NCBI GenBank assembly: GCA_038046645.1 | Contig: JBBSVU010000014.1 | Span: forward strand, 1,512 to 65,511 | DNA length: 64,000 nucleotides | Direction: 5' to 3' | Source of the DNA: an archaeon | Lineage (GTDB): Archaea; Iainarchaeota; Iainarchaeia; Iainarchaeales; 0-14-0-20-34-12 | Shown: piece by piece, positions 10,712-54,837 of the stretch | Layout: every line of letters starts with the position of its first letter | Position numbering within the stretch: the stretch's first letter is position 1 | Program-made: the position numbers and the translations under genes | The notes under the pieces: model-generated | The model's input: the letters and a program-made list of their open reading frames with translations, nothing else | Database searches by the model: none | What the model was told of the DNA's origin: nothing

Positions 10712-10921
10712 TTATTTTAAATGCCTTTGCCATTCAATCTTGTTCCATATCCTTTCATGGGCATAATAAAGCACAGTAGCCACTAAGGTAAAGGCTATTG
10801 TGATAAACGATGTTTCAAAAAGGTTGCCAGTATAAAACCATGATATGCCCGCTAGGGCTAAAGAAGCGAGCACTCGGTAAGTAATCGACTTGACCAAAGA
10901 ACGCTTGAATGAATCTTCCAT
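10712..10921 (-). CDS. DUF2061 family small membrane protein (paralog 1)
   Basis: KRSLVKSITYRVLASL...VLYYAHERIWNKIEW matches the DUF2061 signature as I recall it. Confidence 0.75.
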   Translation of the reverse strand: MEDSFKRSLVKSITYRVLASLALAGISWFYTGNLFETSFITIAFTLVATVLYYAHERIWNKIEWQRHLK

Positions 10922-11084
10922 AATTTCACGGCTTTTGAAAAATATATATGTAATAAAAGCACTGAATCTATATTAATATATCCCCAAAAATACGATTATT
11001 GACGTTATTTTATGCCTGCTAAAACCAAACCAATTAAAAGACTTGCTCCCTAATTTAGTATTCAAAATTAATGAGAGGGTTTTA

Positions 11085-12085: not shown

Positions 12086-12295
12086 CTATTTTGGGTGCCT
12101 TTGCCATCCTGTTTTATTCCATATGCGTTCATGAATATAATAAATTACAATAGCCACAATAGTAAAAACAACTGTAATAAGAGAAGTTTCAAACAGATTC
12201 CTTGTGAAAAACCAGGATATTATGGCTAAAGCCAATGATGCAAGTATTCTGTAGGTAATTGCTTTTACCAGAGAGCGTTTATGTGAATCTTTCAT
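12086..12295 (-). CDS. DUF2061 family small membrane protein (paralog 2)
   Basis: MKDSHKRSLVKAITYRILASL...IYYIHERIWNKTGW is collinear with 10712..10921. The Met at 12295 aligns with the paralog's start (track ORF begins at 12310). Confidence 0.75.
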   Translation of the reverse strand: MKDSHKRSLVKAITYRILASLALAIISWFFTRNLFETSLITVVFTIVAIVIYYIHERIWNKTGWQRHPK

Positions 12296-12343
12296 AAATA
12301 TTTTCCACACTTGCTTGATTAAAATAAAATATAAAAAGAAGAA

Positions 12344-13244: not shown

Positions 13245-13314
13245 ACAATTTTCTCTTTCTTCTTTGAATAAAATATTTATTCTTTCTCTTTCGCAAAGAG
13301 AAAGAAAAAAGATT
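13245..13314. repeat. degenerate half-copy of the polypurine/polypyrimidine hairpin element, abutting the tRNA-Leu 3' end
   Basis: TTTTCTCTTTCTTCTTTGA...then a 12-bp hairpin TTCTTTCTCTTT-CGC-AAAGAGAAAGAA (13280-13306), 8 nt from the tRNA discriminator base. Confidence 0.45.
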
Positions 13315-13398
13315 TGCAGGAGACAGGATTCGAACCTGCGAAGGCACTAAGCCACCAGATCTTGAGTCTGGTCCCGTTGGCCGCTTGGGTACTCCTGC
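13315..13398 (-). tRNA. tRNA-Leu(CAA), no intron
   Basis: Acceptor GCAGGAG/CTCCTGC, anticodon loop CTCAAGA, long variable arm TGGCTTAGTGCCTTC, T arm GCAGG-TTCGAAT-CCTGT, discriminator A. Confidence 0.95.
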
Positions 13399-13446
13399 AA
13401 TAGATAAAACTGTTAATGGAATTAATTATAAATCTTAGTCTTACCT
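13399..13446 (-). promoter_or_regulatory. ~48-nt promoter-like block directly upstream of tRNA-Leu (copy 1)
   Basis: Minus strand reads AGGTAAGACTAAGATTTATAATTAATTCCATTAACAGTTTTATCTATT, then the tRNA 5' end. Contains the TATA-like GATTTATAA. About 85% identical to 13961-14007. Confidence 0.45.
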
Positions 13447-13960: not shown

Positions 13961-14007
13961 AATAGATAAAACTATTAAAGTAATTGATATAAATCTTAGT
14001 CTTACCT
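13961..14007 (-). promoter_or_regulatory. promoter-like block, copy 2 (upstream of the YbaK-like gene)
   Basis: Minus strand reads AGGTAAGACTAAGATTTATATCAATTACTTTAATAGTTTTATCTATT, 12 nt before the ATG at 13948. Overlaps the stop codon of the upstream gene. Confidence 0.45.
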
Positions 14008-14538
14008 TGGCCTTATTGCTCTTCTTCTAACAGGTTTTAAATGGATAAAAAAATCTGGAAATTGGCTTCGATCCAATTCTCCTTGGGTTCTGCTAACAAA
14101 CCGGGAATTAGGCAGCTTAGCTGTATTTCTATCCACGACATGCTGCATTACTCTTTGCATATTGCCAAGCATTCCACTCCATTTAACTGTGTTAGTTCCA
14201 TTTCTTCTAGCAAAACCTATCGCATGGTTGTGCAATGCGTTTGCAATTCCCCGGTTCCAGAATTTTTCCTTGACATTTGTTCTAAAAATAACAAGCTCTT
14301 GTTGTTTAGGGCGGTAAGGCTTTAAGGAAAGCATACCAATTGCTTCCCTGCTTTTAAAATCACGGGCAACAATATAGGAAAATCCTCTTTCTAAATCTGT
14401 TTGAATTGATCTTTTGAACCAATCAAGTTTTCTTCTTGGAATCATCCGCGATTCTTTGAAGGTTGTTGCAAGTTCTTCAACTAGTTCTTCCTTCTCTTCA
14501 ACACGTTGTGCATCAACAAATTCAAAAGATAATTTCAT
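14002..14538 (-). CDS. GNAT-like acetyltransferase-fold protein with Arg-rich C-terminus
   Basis: FRTNVKEKFWNRGIANALHNHAIGFARRNG resembles GNAT motif A. Tail is KPVRRRAIRPR. Weak family call. Confidence 0.5.
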   Translation of the reverse strand: MKLSFEFVDAQRVEEKEELVEELATTFKESRMIPRRKLDWFKRSIQTDLERGFSYIVARDFKSREAIGMLSLKPYRPKQQELVIFRTNVKEKFWNRGIANALHNHAIGFARRNGTNTVKWSGMLGNMQRVMQHVVDRNTAKLPNSRFVSRTQGELDRSQFPDFFIHLKPVRRRAIRPR

Positions 14539-14545
14539 AAAAATC

Positions 14546-15499
14546 TTAGTTTCTTACAATGTGCGTTCCTGCATTTCCTTCCACTGCTTGCATTAATTTA
14601 TCAATTGAAGTAATTATAACTTGTTTTCCGCCTTTTTCAAGGAAATCAACTGCTGCTTCAATCTTTGGACCCATGCTTCCAGCAGGGAAATGCCCTTGCT
14701 TCAAATAATCCTTTGCTTCGTTCAACGTAATTTTATCTAATTGTTTTTGTTGAGGAGTATTAAAATTTAAGCAAACTTTTTCCACCCCTGTCAAAATAAT
14801 TAGTTGATCCGCTTTAATTTGGGAGGCTAAAAGTGCAGAAGCCCTATCCTTGTCAACAACACCGTCAATGCCTTCTAATCTTCCATCTTTTTCATAATAA
14901 ACAGGCATTCCTCCCCCGCCGCAAACAACAGGAATAATGTTTGAATCGACCAATTTTTTTATTGTTTCTTTTTCAACAATATCTTTTGGAATTGGGCTTG
15001 GGACTACTCTTCTAAAACCTCTGCCAGAATCCTCAATAAAAACCATTTTTTCGGTATTCTCTTTTGATTTAATTTTCTCAACCTGCTCTTTTGTGTAAAA
15101 TGGGCCAATTGGTTTTGACGGATTTATTACATTAAGGTCATTTTTATCACAAACAACCTGGGTAAGCAAGCATACAACCTTTCTTTTAATTCCTTGCTGC
15201 TTCAATTTGTTCTGCAAGGTTTGTTCAATCATATAGCCTATCTCGCCTTCAGATTCCGCTACTGCTACACCTAATGGAATGTAATATGCCTTATCCAGTG
15301 CTGCTTCAGTCCTGATCATTATATTTCCAACCTGGGGGCCATTTCCGTGTGTAATTGCCAATTTGTAGCCTTTTTTAATCAAAGGAATAATTCCTTCAGC
15401 AGCTGCCCTTGTGTTTGCAAACTGCTCATACACTGTACCGTACTGACCTTTCCTAATCAGGGCATTTCCGCCCAATGCTAAAACTATTTTAGTATTCAT
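14546..15499 (-). CDS. arcC: carbamate kinase
   Basis: IVLALGGNALIRKGQ, ITHGNGPQVGN, VVCGGGGMPV. 317 aa, full length. Confidence 0.9.
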   Translation of the reverse strand: MNTKIVLALGGNALIRKGQYGTVYEQFANTRAAAEGIIPLIKKGYKLAITHGNGPQVGNIMIRTEAALDKAYYIPLGVAVAESEGEIGYMIEQTLQNKLKQQGIKRKVVCLLTQVVCDKNDLNVINPSKPIGPFYTKEQVEKIKSKENTEKMVFIEDSGRGFRRVVPSPIPKDIVEKETIKKLVDSNIIPVVCGGGGMPVYYEKDGRLEGIDGVVDKDRASALLASQIKADQLIILTGVEKVCLNFNTPQQKQLDKITLNEAKDYLKQGHFPAGSMGPKIEAAVDFLEKGGKQVIITSIDKLMQAVEGNAGTHIVRN

Positions 15500-15500
15500 G

Positions 15501-15700
15501 CCAATCCTTTTCTTTTTTAGAAAAAAAGAAAAGTCTTAGGCCTATTCCAAAAGAAAAAACTGAAATAGTTAGCTTTTCTTTTCTTTCTTTTGATATGCTA
15601 CATTTCCAAATAAAATTCCTATGGAATTTTATTGGACCAGTAAAATTCTACGAATTTTACTTGGTTCTTTCTTTTCTTTGCGAAAGAAAAGAAAGAAAAG
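15501..15700 (+). repeat. full-length extragenic copy of the hairpin element (copy C) with two inserted short hairpins
   Basis: CCAATCC-[TTTTCTTTTTTAGAAAAAAAGAAAA]-GTCTTAGG, then CCAAAAGAAAAAAC...TTTTCTTTTCTTTCTTTTGA. Short hairpins at 15608-15633 and 15640-15660. Then CTTTCTTTTCTTT-GCG-AAAGAAAAGAAAG (15667-15695). Confidence 0.7.
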
Positions 15701-15706
15701 GTGCAA

Positions 15707-15924
15707 CGCTGGGGGCGAGATTTGAACTCGCGCGGGCTTGCGCCCAACAGCTAGCTGCCATTTTGTTCTGCCAAAAGAAAAACAGGAACTATTTATTAAT
15801 TATGAATACATTGAATTAAATTAGTTCTCTTTTCTTTTGGCAACCTACATTTTCTTTTCTCTTTTTAAGAGAAAAGAAAAGGCGGTAGCAGGCTGTCGCC
15901 TTAACCGGACTGGGCCACCCCAGC
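15707..15924 (-). tRNA. tRNA-Ser(GCU) with 133-nt intron at the canonical 37/38 position
   Basis: 5' exon 15886-15924, 3' exon 15707-15752. Acceptor GCTGGGG/CCCCAGC, anticodon loop CTGCTA|A, variable arm TGGGCGCAAGCCCGC, T arm GCGAG-TTCAAAT-CTCGC, discriminator G. Loop CUGC pairs with intron-3' GCAG (BHB-like). Confidence 0.9.
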
Positions 15925-21017: not shown

Positions 21018-21241
21018 GGACCCGTAGCTCAGTCTGGAATCAGAGCAATTCCCTCCTAAACCAAGCCTTTTTCTTTTAGGAAAAGAAAAAGGCTAGGCAT
21101 TATCCAAAAAGAAAACTAATAAATTATACTTAAACAGTTCTTTTTCTTTTGGGGTAACCCTAGACCTTTTCTTTTTCTTTTTAAGAAAAAGAAAAGGGTT
21201 GGGCAAGGAAGAGGTCCTGGGTTCGAATCCCAGCGGGTCCG
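21018..21241 (+). tRNA. tRNA-Arg(CCU) with 147-nt intron at the canonical 37/38 position
   Basis: 5' exon 21018-21058, 3' exon 21206-21241. Acceptor GGACCCG/CGGGTCC, D arm GCTC..GAGC, anticodon loop CTCCTA|A, T arm CTGGG-TTCGAAT-CCCAG, discriminator G. One A.G mismatch at 27:43. Confidence 0.9.
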
Positions 21242-31589: not shown

Positions 31590-31716
31590 ATAAAAGCTTT
31601 TTGGGCTTTATAAAGGATTGGAGAGAGTAGATTTCCTGTGAACTCTACTCGCTTTCATCTACATCTTGAAAGATGCAGATTTCCCGCTCACACGGTTAAA
31701 AAGCCTTCTTCCCACC

Positions 31717-31791
31717 TTCTCTTTTCTTTCTTTTCTTTGGGATAAACCCTAGACTTTTCTTTTCTTTCGCAAAGAAAAGAAAAGGCTTGGG
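31717..31791 (+). repeat. half-copy (arm' + hairpin) of the hairpin element (copy D)
   Basis: TTCTCTTTTCTTTCTTTTCTTTGG-GATAAACCCTAGAC-[TTTTCTTTTCTTT-CGC-AAAGAAAAGAAAA]-GGCTTGGG. Collinear with the 3' third of the tRNA-Arg intron. Confidence 0.65.
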
Positions 31792-31794
31792 AAA

Positions 31795-31808
31795 GTGACA
31801 TATGTCAC
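31795..31808. promoter_or_regulatory. perfect 14-bp palindrome GTGACATATGTCAC upstream of the radical-SAM operon promoter
   Basis: The palindrome sits ~13 nt upstream of the TATA-like TTTAAAAC (31821-31828). The operon ATG is at 31862. Confidence 0.35.
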
Positions 31809-31861
31809 TAAATGTTCTTATTTAAAACAAACATAATTTACTTAGTAACTTGATAACGTGA

Positions 31862-34633: not shown

Positions 34634-35347
34634 ATGCTTGAGAAATTACCTTCAACAATTGCTGGTGAAATATCACTAAGCAAAGACCCTGGAGGCAGCA
34701 TAAAGAAATGGAGAGAAATCTTTAGCATCACCCAGACTGATTTGGCCAAAGAATTGAAGATAAGCCCTTCAACAATAAGCGATTATGAGGGGGGGAGAAG
34801 AAAGAACCCTGGCATCAATGTAGTAAGCAGATTTGTAAATACAATTATCGAGATTGATAGAAAAAGGGGCGGCAAGATAATTAAACAGTTAGAAAAAGAT
34901 TTTGAGCCAAGCTTTGATGCATTTGAAATACATGAATTTTTAAAAGCTTTAAAAGGGGCTGATTTCCTGCAACTTATTAATGGAATTTGCTTGGCAAATG
35001 AATCTAAACTGCAGGAAATAAACATTTATGGATATACAATAATTGACTCATTAAAAGTAATCATAAAAGTGCCTGTGCATGAGTATATGCATCTTTACGG
35101 AAAAACACCGGAAAGAGCCTTAATATTTGAGCAGGTTGAAACCGGAAGAAGCCCGCTAATTGCGGTAAAAATCAGCAAGTTTAGCACAAACATGAATCCT
35201 GCAATTATTGTATTGCACACTCCGAAAAAGCCGGAAGAGATAGATGCTGTTGCAATAAAAATTGCTGAAAGCGAAAAAATTCCTTTAATCATAACTGCAA
35301 AACCTCTTGCGGACATTGTCAAGGACTTGCAGAAATTCGAAACATAA
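34634..35347 (+). CDS. XRE-family HTH regulator with C-terminal uncharacterised domain (archaeal COG1395-like)
   Basis: FSITQTDLAKELKISPSTISDYEGGRRKNPG HTH_3 motif, followed by a ~160-aa C-terminal domain. Confidence 0.75.
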   Translation: MLEKLPSTIAGEISLSKDPGGSIKKWREIFSITQTDLAKELKISPSTISDYEGGRRKNPGINVVSRFVNTIIEIDRKRGGKIIKQLEKDFEPSFDAFEIHEFLKALKGADFLQLINGICLANESKLQEINIYGYTIIDSLKVIIKVPVHEYMHLYGKTPERALIFEQVETGRSPLIAVKISKFSTNMNPAIIVLHTPKKPEEIDAVAIKIAESEKIPLIITAKPLADIVKDLQKFET

Positions 35348-35528
35348 CCAAGCCTTTCTTTTCCATTTCAAGCGAAGCTTGAAAGGACCTATAAAACCTA
35401 AGGTTTTATGTGGTCTTTGCGAAAGAAAAGAAAGTCTAGGTATTACAAGTAAAATTCTATTGGAATTTTACTGTACACTAAAATCCTTTGGATTTTAGTC
35501 GTATCCAAAGAAAAGAAACTATTTTTTT
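35348..35528 (+). mobile_element. 181-nt hairpin-element copy (copy E) flanked by a perfect 16-bp direct repeat
   Basis: GAAATTCGAAACATAA occurs at 35332-35347 and 35529-35544. The element is CCAAGCC-hairpin-GTCTAGG-TATTA..TATCC-AAAGAAAAGAAAC, with four inserted short hairpins (35366-35384, 35391-35409, 35449-35471, 35477-35499). Confidence 0.7.
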
Positions 35529-35580
35529 GAAATTCGAAACATAAATAAGAATATTGCACTAATGATAGGTAAGGGAAAGC

Positions 35581-35994
35581 ATGGTTGGCAGATATCAATT
35601 TGCACTTGCGGAAGACAGGCAGGCAATAGACAGGTTAACACAGGACAGCGTCATTGAATATATGTCATCTACGTACCCAAATGCAAAGGTTGCAGCTATT
35701 TTAGAAGGAGACAAAATTGTTGGGAAAATGATATTTCAAATACGGGAAGCTATGCGCATCGAGTATATTGAAGCAAACAAGGAAGCCACAAAAGATTTTG
35801 TTGCCAAATATGGCAGAACCCTTGCTGAAGAGATTGTTGCCCAATGCATAAAAAAATATGGGGTAAAAAAAATTAAATGGTTTAAACTGCAGCCAGACGG
35901 AGACACGGCAATTAGACGGGCAGCAGAAAAAGGATATGTACGAAATTTGGGGGGGCTGAGGCAGAGATCGCAAATTTCCCAGAACCAATATTAG
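35581..35994 (+). CDS. hypothetical protein (possibly GNAT-like fold), Arg-rich tail
   Basis: 137-aa ORF with AAGGGAAAG upstream. Weak similarity in layout to 14002..14538. Confidence 0.45.
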   Translation: MVGRYQFALAEDRQAIDRLTQDSVIEYMSSTYPNAKVAAILEGDKIVGKMIFQIREAMRIEYIEANKEATKDFVAKYGRTLAEEIVAQCIKKYGVKKIKWFKLQPDGDTAIRRAAEKGYVRNLGGLRQRSQISQNQY

Positions 35995-36101
35995 CAACGA
36001 GCAGGCAAAGATTAAGAAAGTCAGCAAGAAGATCTGCACAAAGAAGCTTTGTTAGGCGAATAAAATCAAGGACAATGAGAAATCCAAGAAGAAGTTTATA
36101 G

Positions 36102-36812
36102 TTAATCCCTTGGTTCTTCATCAAATCTTACGCAAGCAGTTAATCTCTTTATTTCCTGGCCTTCTTTCAGACCCATTAAAGTATTGGAAGTGCTCATTCT
36201 TCCTTCAAATTCTTCTTTTAATTCCCTAGCTGCTTGAAATACAACTTTCTTTGAGCCGATATAATAATCAAAACCATTTGGCAGGGATATTCTCTTGATG
36301 ATCTTTGCCAGAGGATTGTCCTTTTGCCTTTTTAAAAATGAATCAACAAGCCTTTTTGCTTTTTCAATCTGATTAGGGTTATCCGACCTTACCTGCAGGA
36401 TTCCTTCAAAATAACCGCCCGCTATTCTTGAGCAGTCAGGGCAGTTTGTTTTTGCCAATTTCAACTCAAGGTCTTTTTCAATTGCAACCGGCAGCCCCTT
36501 GAAAATGCCTTTTACTGAAATATTTGCAGATAAAACATTCTCTTTCTTTGGTGTAAATTTTATTTTGAAATTTGCCTTTCTTAGCTCTTCCATCTTCAAT
36601 TTGTCAAGCAAATAGTCTGCTATCTCTTCAGTATTTTCATATTTCAGCCATTCATTTTTCAGCTTAATGCGATTGCATTTTTTGCAAAAATCGATTTCAA
36701 ATTTATCAGGGATAACAAGCATCTTATGGTCCTGCAGATAACAATCTTTGCAGAATCCTTCAACGAAAGGGCCGTCAGTTGAACCACATTTAGGGCAAAA
36801 TCGTTCTAACAT
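36102..36812 (-). CDS. NMD3-family (60S subunit export/biogenesis) homolog
   Basis: N-terminal Cys clusters CPKCG...CKDC...FCKKCNR, typical of the NMD3 N-domain. The Met at 36812 is preferred over the track start at 36863. Confidence 0.6.
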   Translation of the reverse strand: MLERFCPKCGSTDGPFVEGFCKDCYLQDHKMLVIPDKFEIDFCKKCNRIKLKNEWLKYENTEEIADYLLDKLKMEELRKANFKIKFTPKKENVLSANISVKGIFKGLPVAIEKDLELKLAKTNCPDCSRIAGGYFEGILQVRSDNPNQIEKAKRLVDSFLKRQKDNPLAKIIKRISLPNGFDYYIGSKKVVFQAARELKEEFEGRMSTSNTLMGLKEGQEIKRLTACVRFDEEPRD

Positions 36813-36873
36813 AAAAATCAATGGCAATACCAAAAAACAAATACTCTTGCAAATAATTAACAAAAGTGGATTA

Positions 36874-42764: not shown

Positions 42765-42903
42765 TAAAGGACATAAATATTTGGCTATAATATAATCCTT
42801 TACTACAACTTAAAGCAAGCTTTAAGTGTACAATTAAATCCTTTGGATTTAATTTGTATCTAGCAAAAGACAATAAAAGTCTCAAAATTAAAGTCTTTTG
42901 CTA
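42764..42903. repeat. array of four short perfect hairpins in the nadA-nadC spacer
   Basis: GTAAAGGA..TCCTTTAC (42764-42803); ACTTAAAGC-AA-GCTTTAAGT (42808-42827); AATTAAATCC-TTT-GGATTTAATT (42832-42854); TAGCAAAAGAC..GTCTTTTGCTA (42861-42903). Confidence 0.65.
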
Positions 42904-51630: not shown

Positions 51631-51758
51631 CTTGCGACAAGATTTTTAGCTATTGGGGCTCTTTGTTTTAACAATACTTTGCCTGCGCAATTTGGGCAGC
51701 GTATCATTGGTTTTGGAATCTCATCCAAAAGCTTTCCACAAGACATGCATTTATACAT
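51627..51758 (-). CDS. rpoP: DNA-directed RNA polymerase subunit P (Rpo12/RpoP), not in the ORF track
   Basis: MYKCMSCGKLLDEIPKPMIRCPNCAGKVLLKQRAPIAKNLVAR is a CxxC...CxxC zinc ribbon. Its start overlaps the eL43 3' end, and its stop overlaps the Pcc1 start (ATGA). Confidence 0.75.
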   Translation of the reverse strand: MYKCMSCGKLLDEIPKPMIRCPNCAGKVLLKQRAPIAKNLVAR

Positions 51759-52281
51759 CAGAATCATCTCCTACTTCTTCTGCAGATTCATCCCCGGTTT
51801 CTTCTGCAGATTCATCCCCGGTTTCTTCTGCAGATTCATCTTCACCAAGGCCTTCCTCTACCTTGTCTGCAAGCACATCAGATTTTTCTTCTGTTTTCTT
51901 TGATTTCTGTTTCTTGTGCTGTTTTTTTGGTTTTTCCTCTTCTTGGGAAATTTCCTCTCCTTCATCTTCAGCAACTTCCTTAATCTCAAGGAGTTCCTTC
52001 ATCAAAGGCAAGAATTGCTTCTGCTGAACCATCTTTGTGATTATTTGCCCTGCGTTTGTTACTGGGGAATATGCTCCACCAGTAAATTTTGCCCCGCATT
52101 TTCTGCATTTAAACAAACCTGAAGCTAGTCTTTTAACCTTAAACTGCTCACATTTTGGGCATTTGTGTTTCTTCCTTTGTATGGTTTCAACATCAACCAA
52201 TCGCTGCCTGATCTTTGTACCATATCTGCTGCCGAAACGCCCTGCCATCTTTACCTTTTTAGTGCTACCCACGTTCTTCAC
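51751..52281 (-). CDS. rpl37ae: ribosomal protein eL43 (L37Ae) with ~85-aa acidic repeat-containing C-terminal extension
   Basis: GSTKKVKMAGRFGSRYG...CPKC...CRKCGAKFTGGAY core (~90 aa), then a K/E-rich segment and GDESAEET x3. Confidence 0.9.
   Translation of the reverse strand: MKNVGSTKKVKMAGRFGSRYGTKIRQRLVDVETIQRKKHKCPKCEQFKVKRLASGLFKCRKCGAKFTGGAYSPVTNAGQIITKMVQQKQFLPLMKELLEIKEVAEDEGEEISQEEEKPKKQHKKQKSKKTEEKSDVLADKVEEGLGEDESAEETGDESAEETGDESAEEVGDDSDV
51772..51845. repeat. 24-nt tandem repeat (about 3 copies) encoding the GDESAEET units of the eL43 tail
   Basis: TTCTTCTGCAGATTCATCCCCGGT is repeated at 51775-51798 and 51799-51822, with a partial third copy. Confidence 0.75.
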
Positions 52282-53823: not shown

Positions 53824-54837
53824 TTAAAACTCCTCTCTTGGCTTTCTTCTAAACCCTCTTGAATCATCTCTTCCAAAGCCTCTTGGCCTACTGTCTCCAA
53901 AGTCACTTCTCGGTCTGTCTCCAAAGTCACTTCTTGGGGCTCTCGGTCTGTCTCCAAAGTCACTTCTCGGTCTGTCTCCAAAGTCACTTCTTGGGGCTCT
54001 TGGCCTACTATCTTCAAAGTCTCTTCTTGGTCTATCTCCAAAGTCTCTTCTTGGGCCTCTATGAAATCCACCTTCTCTTCTTGGCCCAAAGCTCCTATCG
54101 CCAAATGGCCTTCGATTTCCAAATGACCTTCTTGGGCCTCTCCTGAAATCCCTTTCACCATAGCCCTCATCTGAACTCATATCAAACATCTCGGATTCTG
54201 GATGTTCTGAAGTATCTTTTAATTCTGCCTTCTGGTCAAGATAGGCTTTCATGCGGTCAGTCAAGCTGCTTAAATGCGCCTCATCATTTATTTTTTCTAC
54301 TGCTTCTCTTAGAAGTTTGACTGCTTGGTCAGAACCCTTAACCCATATTCGGCCGTTTTTTCCAACAACCATCTGGACGCCGGTGCCAGTAGTAAGCACT
54401 TCAAGCATACTGCCATTTTTTCCAATAATTCTAGGAACCTTTACCGGGCTTGTAGTAATTAAATCCCCACCCAAAAATGGTTTTATATCCTCAAGCTCAA
54501 CCTGGTTCACTTCATTTACACTAATTATTTTTGCCATAACCATTGCGCCTTTATTTAATTTTTTTCTTACTCCCTCTTTTCTGAAAAAAGCCGGGCTGAA
54601 TGAATTTATATTTATAGAATAACCTGCAAAGGATTCATCTCCAATTAATCCAACAATGACATCGCCTTCCTTAGGCATATATTTGCCTTGCAAAGGTATT
54701 ACCCTGGCAATATCTGATTCGGATTCTGCTATTCCCAATGCCTCAGAATATATTTTTCCTTCCCTTTGGTAGACATTTTCCCCTGCTTTCTTTCTTTCTT
54801 CAGTAACTAATTCTCCTGGTACTACAATACGTTTCAT
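53824..54837 (-). CDS. rrp4: exosome RNA-binding subunit Rrp4 with ~100-aa Arg/Asp/Phe/Gly-rich repeat tail
   Basis: N-terminal, S1 and KH domains (VPRIIGKNGSM), then tail repeats RPR(AP)RSDFGD. Confidence 0.9.
   Translation of the reverse strand: MKRIVVPGELVTEERKKAGENVYQREGKIYSEALGIAESESDIARVIPLQGKYMPKEGDVIVGLIGDESFAGYSININSFSPAFFRKEGVRKKLNKGAMVMAKIISVNEVNQVELEDIKPFLGGDLITTSPVKVPRIIGKNGSMLEVLTTGTGVQMVVGKNGRIWVKGSDQAVKLLREAVEKINDEAHLSSLTDRMKAYLDQKAELKDTSEHPESEMFDMSSDEGYGERDFRRGPRRSFGNRRPFGDRSFGPRREGGFHRGPRRDFGDRPRRDFEDSRPRAPRSDFGDRPRSDFGDRPRAPRSDFGDRPRSDFGDSRPRGFGRDDSRGFRRKPREEF
53892..54057. repeat. tandem 24/33-nt repeats (57-nt higher-order unit x2 plus degenerate copies) in the rrp4 3' region
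   Basis: GTCTCCAAAGTCACTTCTCGGTCT alternates with GTCTCCAAAGTCACTTCTTGGGGCTCTCGGTCT. Confidence 0.8.

Follow-up and report, generated by a model that had tools for sequence, protein, structure and literature searches.

At the 3' end of a tRNA gene, casposases generate duplications of 15 bp (occasionally 16 or 22 bp; PMC5137440), and archaeal integrative elements leave direct repeats of the 3' ends of genes (PMC3293823; PMC9897764). Here we describe a direct repeat of a gene's 3' end in a 64,000-nt stretch of DNA ("the window") from an archaeon of the class Iainarchaeia (contig JBBSVU010000014.1 of assembly GCA_038046645.1, forward-strand positions 1,512 to 65,511). A 181-nt mosaic of hairpins, element E, begins immediately after the stop codon of a gene for an XRE-type regulator, and a perfect 16-nt direct repeat flanks it. 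From sequence comparisons, E appears to be an old insertion that two species share, with purifying selection acting on its stems. It is homologous to a module of a tRNA-Arg(CCT) intron.

The other described systems that E brings to mind are the repetitive extragenic palindromic (REP) sequences and interspersed mosaic elements (BIMEs) of bacteria and the bulge-helix-bulge (BHB) introns of archaea. E belongs to a family that is a selected mosaic of hairpin modules, similar to REP/BIME, and that also populates archaeal tRNA introns. As in REP/BIME, short palindromic units occur in variable order and number, mainly just past gene ends and between convergent genes; the stems are kept while the loops drift, and the number of units varies between close relatives. 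Unlike REP/BIME, this family has an archaeal host and unrelated sequences, and its units also build tRNA introns and trailers. Also, we saw no gene for a REP-associated tyrosine transposase (RAYT) or other IS200-like protein, and one copy has a 16-nt flanking duplication, which is absent from REPs. E resembles BHB introns in that its sequence is homologous to part of the tRNA-Arg(CCT) intron (the 5' module), and the canonical BHB intron of the window's tRNA-Ser holds the same type of hairpin. However, E lies after a stop codon, has no credible conserved BHB motif, and corresponds to only part of an intron.

The repeat, GAAATTCGAAACATAA, is found at 35332-35347 (copy 1) and at 35529-35544 (copy 2) on the plus strand, and the two copies enclose 181 nt (35348-35528). 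Copy 1 is the end of the regulator gene (34634-35347, plus strand), an open reading frame (ORF) of 237 amino acids with helix-turn-helix domains (Pfam HTH_19, HTH_3, and HTH_31). It comprises the final five codons (Q-K-F-E-T) and the TAA stop. Copy 2 is non-coding. The identity extends to the stop codon and no further, with CCAAG as the five bases after copy 1 and ATAAG after copy 2. As at att sites, then, the direct repeat consists of the target gene's 3' end. The regulator itself was not altered by the insertion, because its 1544 homologues share its length and the C-terminal motif K-F-E-x. If we allow up to two mismatches and consider both strands of the window, GAAATTCGAAACATAA matches only these two places, and none of the other copies of the hairpin family in the window contains it. 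Just 0.11 matches are expected by chance, and none of 100 shuffles had two or more; likewise, among 500 random pairs of windows at equal spacing, none had a direct match of at least 16 nt. The match count, the shuffles, and the random pairs rule out a chance origin for the repeat.

To describe the comparisons, we label the contigs and loci from other Iainarchaeia and from same-strain assemblies L001 to L121. Contigs from the Hainich groundwater well H52 are identical to the window. Among ~5.8 billion proteins, the closest XRE regulator is from Diapherotrites archaeon CG08_land_8_20_14_0_20_34_12 (95% amino acid identity; hereafter, the relative). The next closest are at 69% or below, and none of the 1544 homologues comes from a species in between. 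These homologues are annotated as Candidatus Diapherotrites or Iainarchaeum, which belong to the DPANN group of archaea. In the contigs of CG08 type (L005-L009 and L094), E is at the identical site: GAAATTCGAAACCTAA is followed by CCAAGCC, the hairpins H1, hp2, and hp3 and the purine run (described below), and then GAAATCGAAATATAA. The relative's first copy of the repeat (GAAATTCGAAACCTAA) has one synonymous change, and its degenerate second copy (GAAATCGAAATATAA, L005 4830-4844) has one deletion and one substitution compared to the window's 16-mer. All three differences between the relative's copies can be assigned to its own branch. Between the window and the relative, 32% of third codon positions differ in the XRE gene and 42% differ in the nearby gene for an aCPSF-type nuclease. 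The probability that a perfect pair would survive in the window is ~0.04 given the neutral rate and 0.27 given the rate for loops, so the perfect pair is compatible with chance retention.

The gene downstream of the XRE regulator indicates the ancestral state. We compared the XRE locus across 80 species-representative genomes, and in 68 of these, a convergent NMD3 gene lies downstream. The stop-to-stop spacing is -4 nt (that is, the genes overlap) in 13 of the 68 other species and at most 50 nt in most of them. The spacing is 143 nt in CG08 and 754 nt in the window, and E was not found in any other species among the 68 Iainarchaeia. Because the relative has E at the same site, while the two stops overlap or nearly abut in 68 other species, these comparisons indicate that E is a derived insertion that is older than the split of the window's organism and the CG08-type species.

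An initial annotation of this DNA had described the 16-mer at these two positions, with the TAA of the XRE gene in the first, around 181 nt of hairpin element. It had also stated that no other copy of the element contains the 16-mer and that the repeat is either flanking DNA that was duplicated upon insertion or an att-like core. The observations, and a duplication of flanking DNA, agree with our results: the coordinates and the window scan give the same picture, and the 3' end of the XRE gene is truly duplicated around an element that 68 species lack. The initial annotation had considered the insertion to be recent, and this did not hold up, given that the relative shares E at the same site, its second repeat has decayed, and third positions have diverged by 32-42%. 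An allele without the element, which the initial annotation had proposed to look for as a check, would read CAGAAATTCGAAACATAA followed directly by (A/T)TAA. However, all of the same-strain contigs with an identical XRE gene (L001-L004) and all of the CG08-type contigs contain the element. No empty site that is precise at nucleotide resolution was found among the loci compared, because there are no intermediate relatives. The short contigs from Logan are not empty alleles; they break inside the palindromes. We also rejected L047 and L059 as a second filled/empty pair, as they are homologous only up to the stop codon, beyond which the DNA is rearranged.

The Logan assemblies of the window's strain (L002-L004 and L121) break in or at hairpin modules, for instance at 37 nt into E. 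Palindromes fragment short-read assemblies, so such elements will be under-represented in collections of contigs.

Element E (35348-35528, plus strand) consists of H1, hp2, hp3, a purine run, and a run of seven T's; the orthologue in the relative is at L005 4715-4829. The predicted fold has a free energy of -68 kcal/mol (z = -8.1 compared to shuffled sequence). In H1 (35348-35440), a pyrimidine-run arm, CCAAGCCTTTCTTTTC (35348-35363), pairs with a purine-run arm, GAAAAGAAAGTCTAGG (35425-35440). The loop of H1 has a nested insertion of ~62 nt (35362-35423) that comprises two extra hairpins and is lacking in the relative; one nested hairpin (TTTCAAGC..GCTTGAAA) is found again in the relative's tRNA-Ser intron. 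Hairpin hp2 (35448-35472) has the arms AGTAAAATTC and GAATTTTACT. Its stems are unchanged in the relative, where four of the five loop bases differ, and it is also present in the tRNA-Ser trailer and in the relative's tRNA-Arg intron. Hairpin hp3 (35477-35499) has the arms ACTAAAATCC and GGATTTTAGT, with identical stems in the relative and a partial paralogue at 42821-42860. The right end of E (35505-35528) has the second purine run, CCAAAGAAAAGAAAC, then TA and the T's (35522-35528); in full, it reads TATCC, purine run AAAGAAAAGAAA, CTA, and seven T's. An end of the form TATCC, purine run, CTAA is common to the tRNA-Arg intron, the tRNA-Ser trailer, and another copy at 31721-31795. E has no terminal inverted repeats that extend to its ends: CCAAGCC.. 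and ..CTATTTTTTT do not complement each other, and the only inverted pair is internal (9 nt, TTTCTTTTC/GAAAAGAAA, 7 and 10 nt from the ends). Rfam covariance models had no match in the window at their gathering thresholds and gave only noise over 15000-36500 at E-values up to 5.

To see if the element is decaying, we can compare paired and unpaired positions between the window and the relative. Of the 350 paired positions in E, the tRNA-Arg intron, and the tRNA-Ser trailer, 9 differ (2.6%), versus 18 of the 116 unpaired positions (15.5%; Fisher p = 2.7e-6). Both rates are far below the 32-42% at third codon positions. Within hp2 and hp3 of E, none of 40 stem bases changed, versus 5 of 8 loop bases. 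This pattern of substitutions indicates that the stems of E are under purifying selection and that the element is being kept rather than decaying. The stems of hp2 and hp3 are conserved in sequence, beyond what pairing requires, which suggests that they are bound by some factor.

Whole units vary between the two genomes. The 62-nt pair of hairpins in the H1 loop of E is in the window only, while hp2 and hp3 in the tRNA-Arg intron, as well as the hp2/hp3 block in the tRNA-Leu trailer, are in the relative only. Several units of the tRNA-Ser intron differ as well. The sub-modules that were gained or lost (58-62 nt hairpin pairs) sit inside existing copies and are flanked by homologous module sequence. 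Because the module copies have homologous sequences on both sides of these indels, exchange between paralogous copies (gene conversion) explains them as well as insertion does. For instance, hp2 and hp3 might have been converted from E into the relative's tRNA-Arg intron, but our hand counts of the differences (5 vs. 6 vs. 8-9) are only suggestive.

The closest paralogue of E is in the intron of tRNA-Arg(CCT) (21018-21241, plus strand). This intron is ~147 nt and has two inverted modules around an AT-rich center. Its left module (21061-21120) opens with the same CCAAGCC as E, right after the anticodon loop. In the relative, 100 of 109 aligned positions (92%) are identical between E and the 5' module of its own tRNA-Arg(CCT) intron, with the same CCAAGCC start, and H1 of the relative's E matches the hairpin of the L029 intron at 27 of 28 positions. 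The sequences to the left are similar as well: the junction is ..CTCCTAA-A-CCAAGCC in the tRNA and ..AACCTAA-CCAAGCC at the XRE gene, and the similarity continues for 20-25 nt upstream of both junctions (CAGA..AATTC..CCTAA; ..CAGAAATTCGAAACCTAA vs. ..CAGAGCAATTCCCTCCTAAA; p ~0.014 in the relative and 0.03 in the window, based on shuffles). Also, tRNA-Arg(CCT) is the upstream neighbor of the XRE gene, on the same strand, in at least 39 of 79 other species.

The link between this module and tRNA-Arg(CCT) extends across the class. A module of H1, spacer, and purine run is located directly downstream of an intron-less tRNA-Arg(CCT) in L014 (459-520), L017 (2209-2270), and L032 (379-430), and the same module opens the tRNA-Arg intron in L018, L029, L033, L050, L053, L068, and the window's lineage. 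That the module is either the trailer or the start of the intron suggests a link between trailers and the origin of the introns. We also noticed that the exons and intron of tRNA-Arg(CCT) are 93-100% identical between the window and the relative, while the neighboring genes are only 74-83% identical.

What might E do? The NMD3-family gene (36102-36863, minus strand; Pfam NMD3) converges on the XRE gene, and in most of the class, the stops of the two genes overlap or abut. A gene for an aCPSF-type beta-CASP nuclease is also downstream, on the opposite strand to the XRE gene. A T-rich run (TTTCTTTTC) starts 8 nt past the XRE stop, and the other strand presents TTTCTTTTCTTT to NMD3; the same T-rich arrangement follows tRNA-Ser, tRNA-Leu, and a gene in L091. 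More generally, the pyrimidine/purine palindrome of H1 offers a T-rich run on both strands after the end of a gene or an exon. The orientation of E relative to the XRE gene is that of the trailers relative to their tRNAs (gene end, H1, hp2, hp3, purine run). Because of the T-rich runs, the convergent genes that ancestrally had no spacer, the trailer-like orientation, and the conserved stems, E is most likely a 3' trailer or a bidirectional terminator or stability cassette between convergent genes, to judge from the sequence. Scans for bacterial-type terminators and for sigma-70 promoters found nothing relevant.

We tentatively propose, as a reading whose chances we put at slightly below even, that E is a one-off duplicative copy of the tRNA-Arg intron module, which was guided by homology or microhomology and was then kept as a trailer- or terminator-like cassette. 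In the common ancestor of the window's organism and the CG08-type species, the module would have been copied right behind the XRE stop, between the abutting XRE and NMD3 genes. This could have happened by a template switch during replication, into the tRNA-Arg intron and back, with synthesis resuming 16 nt before the XRE stop. Alternatively, an unequal crossover could have formed a tandem duplicate of the intron, exon 2, and the XRE gene, of which a later deletion left only the last 16 nt. A junction on the shared ..CCTAA would set the right edge of the repeat at the stop codon. Afterwards, the cassette would have been kept by selection and would have changed only through the gain or loss of whole hairpins. 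A single duplicative copy would account for the edge of the repeat at the stop codon, the start of E at the intron boundary, and the lack of repeats at the other copies (at the six other module copies in the window, the longest direct matches between the flanks are 4-7 nt, which is no better than for random pairs). The initial annotation had listed microhomology-mediated template switching among the possible routes, and it is the option that we favor. Templated insertions and duplications by replication template switching or unequal crossover, such as events of the type of fork stalling and template switching (FoSTeS) or microhomology-mediated break-induced replication (MMBIR), have the same features: a segment copied from another locus, (micro)homology at the junction, a short target duplication, and a single event. 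They differ from E in that its right junction is unexplained, and for these archaea, such a mechanism is a proposed one.

Several observations weigh against this proposal. Between the end of the module, CTA(A), and copy 2, there are 5-8 nt (TTTTTTT in the window, TTCT in the relative) that are absent from the presumed donor. We considered microhomology at AAATT for the right junction, but the predicted junction disagrees with the observed sequence. At the left junction, microhomology requires a 1-nt slip (CCTAA-A-CCAAGCC vs. CCTAA-CCAAGCC), and the statistics are weak. The distance to the donor tRNA is now 13.4 kb in the window and ~7.5 kb in the relative. A shared left end is expected among the paralogues of any discrete module, so the donor could possibly be elsewhere in the genome. 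The gap in XRE identity from 69% to 95% leaves us without a species that shows the empty site or an intermediate state. As for the function as a terminator or trailer, the argument draws on position and the T-rich arms only, and the copy at 31721-31795 is in an apparently divergent intergenic region.

Other gene ends in the class have been duplicated as well, as we found by scanning ~570 kb of Iainarchaeia sequence for perfect short-range repeats. In the relative's L092 (3411-3533, minus strand), an 85-nt insert comes after tRNA-Leu(CAA), followed by 19 nt that perfectly repeat the tRNA's 3' end; the window at 13314-13332 is the empty site for this insert and relic. In L034 (2607-2732), L035 (~1612-1727), and L041 (2722-2840), a relic of ~18-20 nt from the 3' end of tRNA-Arg(CCT), ending at the discriminator base, lies 77-87 nt downstream of the tRNA. 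The inserts in L035 and L041 are orthologous, with compensatory changes in the stems. L034 has tandem units of leader and tRNA with internal deletions, which leave the 20-nt relic. Finally, L029 (3690-3750) has a second, decayed XRE 3' end (AAAAAATTTGAGAGCTGA, 22 nt, then AAAAAAATCCGAGAGCTAA) with no hairpin element in between. Thus, 3'-end duplications arise repeatedly in this class, in at least one case through duplication and deletion. The cases in L034 and L029 are a precedent within the class for the gene-end duplication that we propose for E. We disregarded a 15-nt XRE-end repeat in L071, which is inside the downstream coding region and is probably due to chance.

A few details of these loci are separate from the question of how E arose. 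The insert in L092 has a hairpin that resembles an anticodon arm (CTTTC-TTCCTAA-GAAAG) and that also matches the tRNA-Arg introns of L068 and L088. The relic in L041 is perfect even though the acceptor stem has diverged between the species of L035 and L041, which points to concerted evolution or repeated events. In L029, the downstream copy of the XRE end abuts the end of NMD3, as the XRE gene does in the species without E.

Because E is a discrete multi-copy element with the perfect 16-nt repeat directly at each end, the repeat might instead be the target-site duplication of an enzyme that cuts with a 16-nt stagger, such as a casposase (or another Cas1-like enzyme) or an unusual transposase. 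In this case E would be non-autonomous, similar to a miniature inverted-repeat transposable element, and would be mobilized in trans. The duplications that casposases make at the 3' end of a tRNA gene have a similar length (~15-16 bp; PMC5137440), and the variation of whole hairpin units between the two genomes would fit as well. However, E is just 115-181 nt and has no terminal inverted repeats, the six other copies in the window lack duplications, the other gene-end repeats in the class are 19-20 nt instead of 16 nt (so there is no fixed stagger), and we see a single old insertion that is common to two species. Neither Cas1-solo nor PolB is present in E or among the Pfam-annotated genes of the window; these genes, which cover most of the window, also lack transposase, integrase, Cas1, and reverse-transcriptase domains. 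We consider this explanation to be unlikely. If the 16-mers were the attL and attR cores of an insertion by a tyrosine or serine integrase at the 3' end of the XRE gene, with E as a remnant or a miniature, then the identity should end at the functional end of the gene, as it does: att sites restore the gene end, and repeats of the SSV type or pNOB8 type have their right edge there (PMC3293823). Archaeal integrative elements leave such repeats of gene 3' ends (PMC3293823; PMC9897764), and the 19-20-nt repeats that run to the discriminator base after tRNA-Leu or tRNA-Arg in L092, L034, L035, and L041, along with the window as the empty site for L092, would fit as well. But the insert consists throughout of the host's own hairpin modules, with no foreign DNA; it is hundreds of times smaller than, and far below the size of, known integrative elements; there is no integrase in the neighborhood and no matching attP in the viral contigs scanned; and the case in L034 is better explained by tandem duplication and deletion. 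In viral contigs, GAAATTCGAAACATAA had 26 matches, none of them beside a module, and the motif of hp2 had no matches. Some GC-rich phage contigs match 26 of 28 nt, but with an unrelated context and no module, so we attribute these matches to chance instead of considering them as attP. An att origin for E thus seems quite improbable.

The homology of E to a tRNA intron, and its start just 1-2 nt from the intron's 5' splice site, raise another scenario: an excised intron RNA, possibly circular, could have been reverse-spliced into the XRE transcript or ligated to it and then copied into DNA. In addition, because of a TCGA palindrome in the repeat, the two copies can pair in a symmetric 2-4-2 bp BHB-like motif with AAC bulges. 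We scanned for BHB motifs with the geometry of helix, 3-nt bulge, 4-bp helix, 3-nt bulge, and helix. The tRNA-Ser intron, as the positive control, gave cgacagcCTGC[TAC]cg / tgGCAG[CTA]gctgttg (7+4+2 bp), and by eye, the tRNA-Arg intron has a relaxed motif with one C-U mismatch, CTCC[TAA]ACC / GGT-TGGG[CAA]GGAAG. At the borders of E, in the register of the repeat, there is only atTCGA[AAC]at paired with itself (2+4+2 bp), which is a by-product of the TCGA palindrome; by chance, the same scan yields 3 comparably weak matches on the plus strand and 8 on the minus strand. The mini-motif is flanked by only 2-bp A-U helices, and its inner helix is lost in the relative (C-A). Furthermore, only the intron's 5' half is represented in E, the 3' end of E does not coincide with a splice site, no target duplication results from reverse splicing, and the Pfam-annotated genes of the window do not include a reverse transcriptase, so we consider an RNA route to be extremely unlikely. 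We also rejected E itself as a BHB intron, as there is no credible conserved motif and excision would leave the XRE product unchanged. Another idea is that copy 2 is functional: its UUCGAA would pair with the UUCGAA of copy 1 and close the cassette within the 3' untranslated region of the XRE transcript. The minimum-free-energy fold does close E in this way, and copy 2 is perfect in the window despite its old origin, at the probabilities of no change given above. On the other hand, the relative has lost a T of the hexamer and has changed another base of copy 2, and the pairing needs just 6 of the 16 nt, so a role for copy 2 is very doubtful.

How do these results bear on mobility? The initial annotation had argued that a classical transposase is unlikely to have made the duplication, and the lack of terminal inverted repeats and of duplications at the six other copies supports this. 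It had also taken E as the strongest evidence that the family is or was mobile, and had noted that a lack of flanking duplications at other copies would speak against this. No other copy in the window has such duplications, and an old insertion that seems to be conserved by selection does not support current mobility. The reverse-splicing route that it had raised fares poorly as well, given that E is half of an intron and that the motif at its borders is weak and is broken in the relative.

The last possibility is broader. The module of H1, small hairpins, and purine run may create or remodel tRNA introns across the class, while spreading by a mechanism that duplicates gene ends. This mechanism would act at the anticodon loops of tRNAs, at the 3' ends of tRNAs (the 19-20-nt relics in L092, L034, L035, and L041), and at an mRNA's 3' end (the 16-nt repeat), and E would be an example of how BHB introns originate. 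We view this as rather unlikely, and we prefer the one-off copy of the tRNA-Arg intron module.

The family is represented at several other places in the window. The tRNA-Ser(GCT) gene (15707-15924, minus strand) has a large intron made of module hairpins. Its 3' trailer (15495-15706, minus strand) has the module order of E (H1, hp2, hp3, purine run) and then an inverted H1. This trailer of ~200 nt, between tRNA-Ser(GCT) and a gene similar to carbamate kinase, is ~96% identical to the relative's, versus 86% for the adjacent coding DNA, and the differences are mostly at unpaired positions. Further copies are in the trailer of tRNA-Leu(CAA) and in the introns of tRNA-Ser(GCT) and tRNA-Arg(CCT), along with the short form at 31721-31795 and the partial copy at 42821-42860. 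The short form is in minus orientation and lies beside other palindromes (GTGACATATGTCAC) within 31600-31860, a region that may hold an unannotated small RNA gene. With default settings, neither ARAGORN nor Rfam detects the two intron-containing tRNAs (tRNA-Ser and tRNA-Arg). ARAGORN with introns allowed recovers tRNA-Ser but still misses tRNA-Arg.

Between copy 2 and the NMD3 gene, the window has an ORF of 137 amino acids (35581-35994, plus strand) that matches no family in Pfam or PHROGs. The block that holds it (~35549-36113, or ~545-565 nt) is absent from the relative, which has ~21 nt in its place. We considered whether this ORF is related to the GNAT ORF near tRNA-Leu and found no relation. 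That ORF encodes a 178-amino-acid acetyltransferase (14002-14538, minus strand), and it ends in one copy of a 48-nt direct repeat (13399-13446 / 13961-14007) whose other copy is in a promoter-like region upstream of tRNA-Leu. A 573-nt block (13961-14533) with the GNAT gene and its copy of the repeat is absent from relative L092. The tRNA-Leu(CAA) of L092 also has a 36-nt intron just 5' of the anticodon loop, which the window's orthologue (13314-13399) lacks, so an intron was gained or lost between close relatives. Elsewhere in the window, tandem repeats with a period of 24-36 nt at 53843-54141 and 51750-51840, within long minus-strand ORFs, suggest repetitive proteins, and a 211-nt direct repeat with 72% identity (10713-10923 / 12087-12297) corresponds to two DUF2061 genes that flank an Fe-S assembly cluster.

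Overall, E provides no evidence that a new archaeal transposon is active or that introns are retro-mobile. Instead, the same hairpin modules serve, within one DPANN lineage, as the content of tRNA introns, as the 3' trailers of tRNAs, and as a cassette between convergent genes that formerly overlapped. The hairpin family is a candidate archaeal counterpart of the REP/BIME elements of bacteria. Also, the class-wide association of the module with tRNA-Arg(CCT), together with E at the end of a protein-coding gene, provides a testable data set on the origin and movement of archaeal tRNA introns.

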